This document shows, one piece after another, positions 17,261 through 19,088 of a stretch of DNA of 36,968 nucleotides (positions within the stretch are counted from its first letter, which is position 1; each line of letters opens with the position of its first letter). The stretch lies in the IMG/VR virus record IMGVR_UViG_2737471838_000003, positions 1 to 36,968 of that record, one strand, 5' to 3'. The translations under genes and the position numbers were made by a program. The notes beneath the pieces were generated by a model, which saw nothing but the letters and a program-made list of their open reading frames with translations, was not told the DNA's origin and searched no databases. Source of the stretch: a virus (taxonomy: Duplodnaviria > Heunggongvirae > Uroviricota > Caudoviricetes).

Positions 17261-17283
17261 GAAAAAGGCCCGCCGGAGCGAGC
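17261..17283 (-). terminator. Rho-independent terminator-like hairpin (minus strand: ggctcgc uccg gcgggcc then U5)
   Basis: 7-bp GC-rich stem with one G-U pair plus U-run on the minus strand; shares its core (gaaaaaggcccgccg) with the hairpin at 18067-18091. Confidence 0.5.
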
Positions 17284-17296
17284 CATACAAAACTGA

Positions 17297-17324
17297 ATAA
17301 AAAAAACCGCCCGGTAGAGGCGGT
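17297..17324 (-). terminator. Rho-independent terminator (minus strand: aaccgcc ucuaccg ggcgguu then U8)
   Basis: 7-bp perfect stem followed by an 8-nt U-run on the minus strand, just upstream of the holin gene. Confidence 0.55.
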
Positions 17325-17686
17325 TGGTCTATGCATGAGAATAAATCATTTTTATTGTAATAAAAATCAAGGCGTCGGGTGCCTCCCGAAGTATTCCACT
17401 TTACATGGATACTGTGGTTTCCCGCTAAATTGAATATATAAACCACCCTCGCACTGAGGAACGCCTCAATTCATAGTTTTCGACACAGAGATTGCGCATC
17501 ACCGGTTTTCCGGTGCTCCATGCTGCTTGCTTTCGGAGGCAAGCGCCATTTCTTATTCATAAAAAATACAGCACTGAATCTGCAACCGACCTTCGTAACA
17601 GAATGAGGGACGATAATAAAACTACCAAGGTCTGTTCCTCACGAAAAACGCCAGTGCTGTAAAAATTCACAAAGCCAGAGTAATGA

Positions 17687-17762
17687 TGGAGCGAAGAACA
17701 GGAATCGAACCTGCATCATCAACTCAGAAGATTGATGGTAATAGCCATTATACGATCTCCGC
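17687..17762 (-). tRNA. tRNA-Arg, anticodon UCU (reads rare AGA codons), prophage-encoded
   Basis: Hand-folded 76-nt cloverleaf on the minus strand: 7-bp acceptor stem (GCGGAGA/UCUUCGC with one G-U), D-loop with GG, anticodon stem UCAAU/GUUGA with loop C-U-UCU-G-A, T-arm GCAGG-UUCGAUU-CCUGU, discriminator U and encoded CCA. D-stem is only 3 bp plus a mismatch and there is a 2-nt connector, so confidence is moderate. Confidence 0.6.
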
Positions 17763-18066
17763 ATGCCGTACTGGCTCACGGAATCACGTGAATTACCGGG
17801 AGCCAGCACTGGTCTTTCAGGTGACCTGTAACACCCCTGTTAACATAAAAGATAAACACCTTCCAGACCACCGCAAATACTAACGGCAGTTTTTCAGACA
17901 TCAAAATATATTTGGTATTCATTTTTAAATATATGTATACATCTGTATCAGAAATATATAACTTATATCATTACTGAATTAAAAATATTGCGTTATTTCT
18001 CTGTCCGTCTGATTAAAACGTTCCTCCTCCAGTTCGATGCCAGTCGCGCGACGCCCTGCACTCAAT

Positions 18067-18091
18067 GAAAAAGGCCCGCCGCAGCGTGCCT
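18067..18091 (-). terminator. Terminator-like hairpin just downstream of the AraC-family gene (minus strand: aggcacgc ugcg gcgggccu then U5)
   Basis: 8-bp stem with one internal mismatch plus U-run; nested in a longer imperfect palindrome cactcaatgaaaa...ttttcaatgagtg. Confidence 0.5.
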
Positions 18092-18115
18092 GTTTTCAAT
18101 GAGTGCAAAGTTCAA

Positions 18116-18859
18116 TTATTCTTGAGTAACACTTAAACTCATCTCATTGAATGCAGCCATCCTGTAACCTGCCGGTGTAACACCAAAATAACTCCTGAAT
18201 ACGCTGATAAAATAAGATGTAAAATTATAGCCGCACTGAGCAGCGATTCTGTTGATGGCGCAACGAGATTGACTCAACAGCATTGCTGCCATTCTCATTC
18301 TCTCTGTAAGCAACAACTCACTGAAACAGGTGCCTTCTTCTTTCAGTCTTTTTTTTAACAAACTTTCACTGATACATAACCGCGAAGACACATCTCTCAG
18401 AGTCCAGTTTGCTGCAATGTCCGTACGAAACAATGCACTAAGCCTGTCACTAATATTGCTAATACACGCGGTCAGAAACGACGAAAACATTTTCTCTGAT
18501 GAGAAAAACGCCAGACACGAAAAGGAAAGCATTTCCGCTAAATTGTCCGTATGAATCTTTTCCTCACAAAGATAATCAATCAGGATGCCCATCAATTCTG
18601 CCTTGGGAAAACTCACGCAAAGATATCGTGGTATTTGCCGGACTAAAACTACATCCTGTTTTTCGTCTCCACACAACAGGTAACGGCTAATTGTCGATTC
18701 ACTGAGACTTATTCGCCGAAAACATTCCGAAAAGGGCAATAACGATCCAGCTCCCCCCCTGACAAGAAGTGCACTACCACTTTCAAGAGAGAGCTCTTTT
18801 CCTTCAAAGAGCACAACAAACGGGGAATGAACAAAAACAACAGAACAGGCTTCATTCAT
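18116..18859 (-). CDS. AraC/XylS-family transcriptional regulator (prophage moron in the late region)
   Basis: 247 aa from MNEACSVVFVHSPFVVLFEG...; the C-terminal ~100 aa have the AraC-type HTH signature (...WTLRDVSSRLCISESLLKKRLKEEGTCFSELLLTERMRMAAMLLSQSRCAINRIAAQCGYNFTSYFISVFRSYFGVTPAGYR). The ORF-track 298-aa version spans the upstream terminator, so the start is set at 18859. Confidence 0.8.
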   Translation of the reverse strand: MNEACSVVFVHSPFVVLFEGKELSLESGSALLVRGGAGSLLPFSECFRRISLSESTISRYLLCGDEKQDVVLVRQIPRYLCVSFPKAELMGILIDYLCEEKIHTDNLAEMLSFSCLAFFSSEKMFSSFLTACISNISDRLSALFRTDIAANWTLRDVSSRLCISESLLKKRLKEEGTCFSELLLTERMRMAAMLLSQSRCAINRIAAQCGYNFTSYFISVFRSYFGVTPAGYRMAAFNEMSLSVTQE

Positions 18860-18971
18860 ATCAATTGCCCTGACATTACTGGTCACAAGATAAGTATATA
18901 TCGATTTACAAAAATACAAGCCGAAAGACCAGTATTCGCAACCACCAGCACGTTTTATGTTCTCTGCCGTT

Positions 18972-18993
18972 TTTCGGACATAAAAAACCCGCT
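18972..18993 (-). terminator. Strong rho-independent terminator (minus strand: cccgc cauuga gcggg then U6); candidate tR-prime-like late terminator downstream of Q
   Basis: Perfect 5-bp GC stem with 6-nt loop and UUUUUU on the minus strand, about 95 nt after the Q stop. Confidence 0.65.
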
Positions 18994-19088
18994 CAATGGC
19001 GGGTTGTATCAAAGTTCATGCGCTTGGTTCGCCTCGCGATACAGCTTTGCGAAGCATAGCAAAATTGAAGCAGTTTATACGTAAGAAA

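Follow-up and report, generated by a model that had tools for sequence, protein, structure and literature searches.

An AraC-family regulator and a glyT-like tRNA with a UCU anticodon in a probable late-operon cargo slot of a lambdoid Escherichia coli prophage

The DNA analysed here is the IMG/VR virus record IMGVR_UViG_2737471838_000003 (Caudoviricetes), 36,968 nucleotides in its full length and hereafter called the window. A search with 2 kb of it gave a 100% match in the chromosome of the bovine Escherichia coli strain ZYB62. The minus strand of the window bears a lambdoid E. coli prophage's late genes and, unless stated otherwise, all features described below, and cargo sits between a Q-like gene encoding a DUF1133 protein (19631-19089; Pfam DUF1133, 353.9 bits) and the first holin gene (17134-16742). 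This cargo comprises the gene for a 247-amino-acid AraC-family regulator (18859-18116) and an 806-bp module bearing a tRNA gene with the anticodon UCU (17687-17762). GC content is 0.38-0.45 across the cargo (17450-19100), including ~0.41-0.44 over the regulator gene, and rises to 0.55-0.60 in the holin gene. The phage backbone, represented by the 3' end of the Q gene together with the holin gene, matches 1,713 genomes, whereas the regulator allele occurs in only 65 of 5,426 complete E. coli genomes, chromosomal in all of them. Because of this disparity, and because strain EC11 has the regulator allele without the tRNA module, both cargo modules are interpreted as indels; their patchy presence among similar phages, terminators of their own and GC content unlike that of the neighbouring genes are among the hallmarks of phage morons in the sense of Hendrix and colleagues. 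The locus is therefore best explained, with good though not full confidence, as a cargo slot in the late operon of a lambdoid E. coli prophage that holds two independent cargo modules.

The regulator carries the Pfam domains HTH_18 (51.7 bits, cut-off 33.6) and HTH_AraC (49.8 bits, cut-off 26.6) at residues 158-233 of an intact open reading frame (ORF), and the protein is identical to WP_032316927.1 of strain ZYB62, annotated by the Prokaryotic Genome Annotation Pipeline (PGAP); an earlier note on this DNA, which had placed an AraC-family regulator between Q and the lysis genes, was thus correct. Among NCBIfam models, YdeO scores best (148 bits, full-length, with residues 2-230 aligned to positions 2-228 of 253) and GadX comes next (99 bits); since these scores lie far under the equivalog cut-offs of 348 and 500 bits, the regulator is not an orthologue of YdeO or GadX, nor of GadW or AppY. 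The nearest solved structure by sequence is the DNA-binding domain of GadX (3MKL, E 1e-22). In direct BLASTP comparisons of the window protein with characterised relatives taken from Sakai, EDL933 and K-12, over ~230 residues, identity is highest to PatE (ECs_0287; 40% over 234 residues), followed by YdeO (37%), PsrA and PsrB (36-37%), GadW (36%) and AppY (30%), while the 40% identity to GadX covers the C-terminal half only. PsrA and PsrB, which are 90% identical to each other, are no nearer to the window protein than PatE, YdeO and GadW, and the window protein and its characterised relatives are roughly equidistant from one another. An N-terminal M-x3-C-S-V motif is present in eight of nine aligned sequences, GadX being the exception, and conserved positions of the DNA-binding domain are common to all nine. 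Sequence comparison places the regulator in the GadW/YdeO/AppY/PatE/Psr clade as a separate branch. An initial word-indexed search for proteins similar to the regulator gave no more than 15 close matches, none with an informative name, and a PADLOC search gave no match that would point to a defence role.

Upstream of the cargo, the DUF1133 gene follows genes for a NinB-like DUF1367 protein (20517-19918) and a YbcO nuclease (19918-19628), both supported by Pfam, PGAP and PHROGs, and is itself followed by a promoter-like block with a terminator, the cargo and the holin genes. The DUF1133 protein matches PHROG 753, annotated 'anti-termination protein Q-like'. As a single sequence it scores 23.8 bits against PF06530 (Phage_antitermQ), under the cut-off of 26, and a precomputed PF06530 match is present in nearly all of its homologues. 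In addition, a profile of 22 homologues retrieves the Q21 chains 6P18_P and 6JNX_P as top matches in the PDB (E 3.5e-5), with two collinear stretches that cover most of Q21. These weak sequence similarities mark the DUF1133 protein as a probable distant Q21-type late antiterminator, and the position of its gene, with the nin region before it and a promoter-terminator cassette and the lysis genes after it, is that of a Q gene. Weighing against the assignment, besides the weakness of the similarity itself, the AlphaFold model of the protein is poor (predicted local distance difference test score, 61; predicted template modelling score, 0.46) and a Foldseek search with it against the PDB gave nothing below E 1, the input alignment of 22 homologues 74-96% identical being too shallow. 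A search for an experimentally defined function of DUF1133 found none.

Directly behind the DUF1133 gene, sequence inspection and conservation reveal a candidate late promoter with a -10-like element (19053-19092), which consists of a -35 element TTGATT (19092-19087), a 17-nt spacer and a -10 element TTCAAT (19069-19064), with TATGCT (19058-19053) in the initially transcribed region at the expected transcription start. A simple promoter scan missed this candidate, in which the second base of the -10 element is T. A leader hairpin comes next, and the first terminator lies ~75 nt downstream of the candidate start site. Conservation extends over ~110 nt past the DUF1133 stop codon and is seen in five prophages, among them EDL933 OI-57, whose Q gene has diverged at its 3' end. 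Q-type control of a late promoter and terminator is known from phages lambda, 82 and 21. Given this precedent and the conservation of the block, we infer a putative late promoter, a pause or Q-loading region and a tR'-like terminator. On this reading, the first hairpin is part of the phage backbone, and the cargo starts ~85 nt after it. As a side observation, the ~75-nt transcript expected from this cassette (18980-19060) could act as a small RNA, like StxS of Shiga toxin (Stx) phages (PMC13502914).

A terminator scan of the region from 15.5 to 21 kb yielded 18 terminator-like sites against 6.2 +/- 2.3 expected, and five hairpins followed by T-runs punctuate the slot on the late-gene strand, with folding energies of -11.2 to -14.6 kcal/mol and z-scores of -2.0 to -4.1 relative to dinucleotide shuffles. 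The first, the tR'-like intrinsic terminator (18980-19005), has a stem at 19005-18986 followed by TTTTAT (-11.2 kcal/mol, z -3.5) and is kept in all five aligned prophages. The second (18065-18090), behind the regulator gene, has a stem at 18090-18073 with one A.G mismatch (-11.4 kcal/mol) and forms the left copy of a 26-nt direct repeat. The third (17297-17325) ends the tRNA module, with a stem at 17325-17305 (-12.1 kcal/mol, z -3.5), and is conserved in strain RM10740. The fourth (17259-17284; stem at 17284-17267, -14.6 kcal/mol, z -4.1) is the right copy of the repeat. The fifth (17154-17175) stands 20 nt upstream of the ribosome-binding site of the holin gene (-11.6 kcal/mol, z -2.0), is identical in EC11 and differs by one stem-loop substitution in RM10740. 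Four such hairpins had been described before, as brackets around a moron; three of the placements (17297-17324, 17261-17283 and 18067-18091) and the assignment of all to the late-gene strand hold, but the real hairpin for the remaining one (18972-18993) lies ~12 nt further upstream, the count is five, and the first hairpin fits better as a tR'-like terminator within the late-promoter cassette than as a piece of the moron. An Rfam search of 16700-19300 at a relaxed threshold produced sub-threshold matches only (Hrs13, 21 bits; STnc100, 20 bits; isrK, 18 bits; Trp_leader, 21 bits), most of them driven by the terminators and all taken as chance.

The tRNA module behaves as an indel of its own. 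The tRNA is missing from strain EC11, whose regulator allele and holin are the same, and alignment of this strain with the window shows a clean 806-bp deletion between the two repeat copies (one 26-nt copy being counted in the unit), which are 92% identical and 806 bp apart; the interior of the module spans 17285-18064. The extra cargo that the earlier note recognised is real, whereas its single moron with regulator and tRNA resolves into two separate modules. RM10740, which carries a sister allele of the regulator, also has both repeat copies with a tRNA between them, so that the tRNA-bearing form is probably the older one and EC11 represents a deletion between the repeats. Apart from the tRNA, the module contains a 48-amino-acid ORF (17776-17922), which is the 5' remnant of a gene for a 313-amino-acid hypothetical protein; this gene follows the same regulator allele in NWU_3 (L012:4227-5168), and homology to NWU_3 extends up to window position 17798. 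Neither the 48-amino-acid ORF nor the 313-amino-acid NWU_3 protein has a Pfam match. Beyond that gene, the NWU_3 prophage has a baseplate-like gene and one for a type I restriction endonuclease in place of lysis genes. Most genomes with the regulator have no UCU tRNA, so that the tRNA is not required for the regulator and the link between them is not obligatory.

The tRNA has the anticodon UCU according to ARAGORN and matches Rfam RF00005 at 47.8 bits (gathering score, 29), 18 bits lower than the 65.6 bits of its tRNA-Gly orthologue. It is identical to K-12 glyT, a tRNA-Gly(UCC), at 62 of 76 positions (82%). Against the phage tRNA-Arg genes of argN/argO type in Sakai, EDL933 and VG48B2, identity falls to 51-65% (57-65% for those with the anticodon UCU), the background level among tRNAs (thrU, 57%). 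At the orthologous position, RM10740 has a true tRNA-Gly(UCC) with an alignable upstream flank (the tRNA loci compared were L022:4162-4236, and L010:2494-2570 and 3278-3352). The D-arm is not glycine-specific, and the argument for glyT ancestry rests on whole-tRNA identity together with synteny; by these measures, the gene is a remodelled glyT-type tRNA-Gly(UCC) and not an argO-type tRNA-Arg. Accordingly, the designation tRNA-Arg(UCU) given previously fits the cloverleaf and the anticodon, but not the body of the molecule.

There are 14 differences from glyT: twelve in stems, one an inserted A that pairs with U44, and only two in loops, namely A37 to G and the C36-to-U change that gives rise to the UCU anticodon. 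The eight changed stem pairs are all still standard pairs, four of them changed on both sides, and the D-arm, variable region and T-loop are identical to those of glyT. G1:C72, C2:G71, G3:C70, U73 and C35 are retained, all of which are among the determinants recognised by glycyl-tRNA synthetase (GlyRS). The identity elements of E. coli arginyl-tRNA synthetase (ArgRS) are A20 and A or G at position 73. The D-loop AAUGGCUA of the window tRNA puts C at position 20 and its discriminator base 73 is U, whereas in the genuine phage tRNA-Arg(UCU) of VG48B2 and EDL933 an A follows GG in the D-loop and base 73 is A or G. The UCU tRNA therefore keeps every GlyRS determinant of the acceptor stem and lacks the ArgRS determinants A20 and A/G73.

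It is quite possible, though less than probable, that the UCU tRNA does not work as an arginine tRNA, being either an inactive glyT-type relic or a tRNA that is still charged with glycine and misreads AGA. Besides the glyT-like body, the orthology to a true tRNA-Gly(UCC) and the glycine-type determinants, several features weigh in this direction: G37 replaces the A37 normally found in tRNAs that read ANN codons, the anticodon stem has 6 bp, A20 is absent, and the Rfam score falls below that of the Gly orthologue. Moreover, the UCU lineage is represented in VG48B2 by a decayed copy that neighbours an intact Gly one, and the UCU variant is very rare, being found in about five complete E. coli genomes and two IMG/VR contigs. 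No combination of a glyT-like D-arm with UCU or another non-UCC anticodon was found in 185,579 species-representative genomes, and the same scan of IMG/VR retrieved only this lineage and unrelated tRNAs (an amber suppressor, tRNA-Thr and tRNA-Gln) that share the D-arm motif alone. However, pairing is preserved at all 12 stem differences, four being double compensatory, and the bases of the D-, T- and variable loops are unchanged, which argues that the tRNA structure is still under selection. Across the anticodon arm, a genuine phage tRNA-Arg(UCU) shares 18 of 20 bases. In addition, this slot is taken in the psrA and psrB prophages by an unrelated tRNA that also has the UCU anticodon, suggesting selection for AGA decoding, and glycine at AGA codons would harm the AGA-rich regulator next door. 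The preserved pairing and the same-anticodon tRNA of the psr loci argue for a working tRNA, while G37 and the absent arginine determinants call for caution about an arginine function.

Two specific versions of a working tRNA can be set apart. A natural alloacceptor, in which the glyT copy with a UCU anticodon would still be charged with glycine if expressed and would insert glycine at AGA upon induction, is improbable; if true, it would be a natural counterpart of the laboratory missense suppressor glyT su(AGA). The milder version, a true switch to arginine through remodelling of the anticodon arm, is more likely than the glycine-charged one, although it too is put forward only tentatively; if true, it would document the recruitment of a tRNA gene in a phage. 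In either case, or as a relic, the tRNA is a small natural case of an anticodon shift. Nothing relevant emerged when the literature was searched for prophage alloacceptor shifts and for glyT suppressors of AGA. Changes in the anticodon loop of phage tRNAs have been proposed to evade host anticodon nucleases (PMC10264068).

The window and most other carriers have an intact regulator gene; many of the carriers are bovine, ovine or porcine isolates, Shiga toxin-producing E. coli (STEC) or enterotoxigenic E. coli (ETEC). Relative to the sister allele of RM10740 (91.6% identical; 8.4% nucleotide difference), the ratio of nonsynonymous to synonymous substitution rates (dN/dS) is 0.28, and the gene is under purifying selection. 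Inactivating mutations in the window allele, which would have spoken against a role for the regulator as proposed earlier, were looked for and are absent. The allele occurs behind at least two unrelated types of antiterminator, DUF1133 and QuuD-like. In RM10740 (L022:759-2427), the sister allele, a tRNA-Gly and the same holin family stand behind a QuuD-type antiterminator and an opposite-strand OmpC/NmpC-like porin gene, an arrangement which implies that regulator, tRNA and holin travel as one block between phages whose Q proteins are unrelated.

These observations bear on the idea that the regulator is silent or decaying cargo without a current host role, carried along in a permissive late-operon slot. 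In strain C41, an otherwise identical locus (L002:3292-4033) is 2 nt shorter inside the gene, which is thereby frameshifted, and PGAP annotates only a 158-amino-acid C-terminal fragment; strains C7 and C3 probably also carry frameshifted alleles, judged by split annotation. The 120 nt upstream of the regulator gene show no consensus sigma-70 promoter, and the scan lists none 5' of the tRNA; by eye, the only candidate upstream of the gene is a weak one, TATACT with a poor -35 element, so that lysogenic expression of the regulator, if any, would be weak or activator-dependent. These findings count against an active regulator, as do the terminators on both sides, the rarity of the allele, the gene remnant in the neighbouring module and the decayed tRNA copy in a sister phage. 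Silent cargo is nevertheless an unlikely explanation, given the intact gene in most carriers, a low dN/dS between alleles 8.4% apart, the retention of the allele through mosaic exchange that its presence behind DUF1133 and QuuD-like antiterminators indicates, and the measurable phenotypes of its relatives PsrA, PsrB, PatE and AppY.

The relatives also guide the expectation of what the regulator does. PatE, PsrB and AppY activate gadE, hdeA and further acid-resistance genes (PMC10877973; PMC10057817), and PsrA and PsrB thereby repress type III secretion (PMC10877973, PMC8565820). By analogy, the window regulator most likely binds AT-rich host acid-fitness promoters such as those of gadE and hdeA and so adjusts acid resistance, and in hosts positive for the enterocyte effacement locus (LEE) it would also adjust type III secretion. 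The likeness to prophage AraC-like regulators of acid resistance and secretion that had been proposed for this gene is supported by full-length collinearity with PatE, Psr and AppY at 30-40% identity. The same low identity to every characterised relative tells against a direct transfer of their targets, as target specificity may differ. Psr regulators in the sense of Tree et al. 2011 share their prophage with type III effector loci and Pch regulators; none of the genes examined here, which are part of the window's full set, encodes an effector or a PerC/Pch homologue. An action mainly on phage genes, affecting lysis timing, late-gene output or superinfection exclusion, would suit a late-operon gene that lies just upstream of the holin gene, as its homologue does in phage 1H12, and whose expression is expected to peak after induction. 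It is very unlikely, since lambdoid relatives in which antiterminator and holin are the same lack the regulator and so do without it in their lytic programme, the promoters on which all characterised members of the clade act are those of host acid resistance or virulence, and PatE and AppY are placed elsewhere in their prophages, after tail-fibre genes.

Under the preferred reading of a regulator in a Q-controlled cargo slot, the late promoter would fire in the lysogen and its transcripts would stop at the first terminator, so that expression of the regulator at this stage would require a weak or activated promoter of its own. Upon induction, the DUF1133 protein would load onto the polymerase at the late promoter, and the Q-modified polymerase would read through all five terminators, such that regulator, tRNA and lysis genes would be expressed together. 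The regulator, like its relatives, would go on to act at AT-rich acid-fitness promoters of the host, and the UCU tRNA would read AGA, thereby supplying a rare codon for the regulator, in which AGA and AGG make up 9 of 17 arginine codons (36 per 1000 codons). The frequency is similarly high in patE, appY, psrA, psrB and the 1H12 homologue (21-44 per 1000). A UCU tRNA next to an AGA/AGG-rich gene is coherent with rare-codon supply, and the recurrence of such regulators behind a late antiterminator beside UCU tRNAs of independent origin suggests that the pairing is selected. Prophage AraC-like regulators such as PatE, PsrA/B and AppY tie acquired DNA to host acid-resistance and virulence circuits. 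The regulator described here forms an uncharacterised fifth branch of the clade; because it is under purifying selection and its carriers are mainly livestock-associated, STEC and ETEC genomes, it can reasonably be considered a candidate for a further regulator of lysogenic conversion.

Downstream of the slot, the late operon continues with holin 1 (Phage_holin_8, at the position given above), holin 2 (Phage_holin_3_7; 16752-16474) and a GH108/PG_binding_3 endolysin gene (16472-15927), all supported by Pfam, PHROGs and PGAP. No spanin (Rz/Rz1) is annotated after the endolysin gene (15610-15926), where ~300 nt separate it from an opposite-strand bor gene; in sister prophages whose endolysin is of the M15 type, this spot is occupied by a small ORF. 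Elsewhere in the window, the nin region encodes an anti-phage defence pair, IetA (AAA ATPase, 437 bits; 24780-25949, minus strand) and IetS (S8 peptidase, 898 bits; 22487-24742, minus strand), with a Hok/Gef toxin gene and the NinB-like gene lying downstream. In addition, RalA, the small RNA antitoxin to the RalR toxin, is found at 35234-35412 (minus strand; Rfam, 218 bits), indicating that the left arm of the element is of Rac type.

The closest known counterparts of this architecture are the psr loci. The gene psrA is ECs_1087 in Sakai Sp4, as a 2026 paper by the laboratory that discovered the family states (PMC13502914) and as the comparison here confirms, and there it lies between the antiterminator gene ECs_1084 and ileZ-argN-argO; ECs_1087 is annotated 42 codons short, the full ORF encoding 237 amino acids. 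Two reviews place psrA (z1789) in OI-50/CP-933N, but annotation and tblastn reveal no AraC homologue there in Sakai Sp6 or EDL933, in a check that covered L006, L007 and L008 (Sakai Sp6, EDL933 CP-933N); the gene is at L021:6678-7391 (Sakai Sp4). In EDL933 OI-57, the order is a DUF1133 gene (its product 82% identical to that of the window), a 65-amino-acid ORF, an AraC-like gene, tRNA-Ile(CAU), tRNA-Arg(UCU), TerB, an esterase and a holin. This AraC-like gene is 90.7% identical to ECs_1087 (psrA) and, since reviews give 90% identity between PsrA and PsrB (PMC10877973, PMC8565820), it is taken to be psrB. The comparisons drawn earlier with the slot of Stx phages and with prophage AraC regulators thus hold, because both psrA and psrB occupy this position.

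Like the window regulator, PsrA and PsrB (Tree et al. 2011; Yang et al. 2015, as reported in PMC10877973) are AraC-family proteins, full-length collinear with it at 237 versus 247 amino acids, and their genes follow a late antiterminator gene, directly precede tRNAs including one with a UCU anticodon, and lie upstream of lysis genes; for psrB, the antiterminator is the same 82%-identical DUF1133 protein. They differ in sharing only 36-37% identity with the window protein and in their tRNA, which is argO-type in the psr loci and glyT-derived in the window, and the psr companions (CAAX protease, nanS-p esterase, TerB and a small ORF) do not accompany the window regulator. PatE (Z0321/ECs_0287; Bender et al. 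2012, as reported in PMC10877973) resembles the window protein in its 247 amino acids, prophage-borne location, low GC content and AGA/AGG richness. However, its gene lies at the tail-fibre end of the remnant prophage Sp1 and not in a late-operon slot, and its targets are known (hdeA, gadE and LEE genes), whereas those of the window regulator are suggested by family. The AR2 acid-resistance regulators YdeO, GadW, GadX and AppY, which are chromosomal or encoded by DLP12, are kin within the clade in a differing genomic context, and phage 1H12 and its relatives have a 37%-identical homologue directly upstream of the holin gene.

In Stx phages such as 933W and Sakai Sp5, cargo and rare-codon tRNAs lie between the antiterminator and holin genes, behind a terminator that only Q-modified polymerase passes. 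Placement of cargo and tRNA in their late region (Q, pR', tR', ileZ-argN-argO, stx and lysis genes) is the same as in the window, which differs in having no toxin, a regulator as cargo, an antiterminator of the DUF1133/Q21 type and one tRNA of other ancestry. For the tRNA itself, the nearest parallel is glyT su(AGA), a classical missense suppressor of E. coli in which C36 of glyT is changed to U. The window tRNA has the same body and the same C36-to-U change giving UCU, but it is natural and prophage-borne, carries 13 further changes (in the stems, A37G and an inserted base) and occupies a slot that holds an unaltered tRNA-Gly in sister phages. Collectively, these comparisons indicate that the architecture is already known from psrA and psrB, and that what is new is the uncharacterised regulator allele together with a glyT-derived UCU tRNA as the one unusual element.

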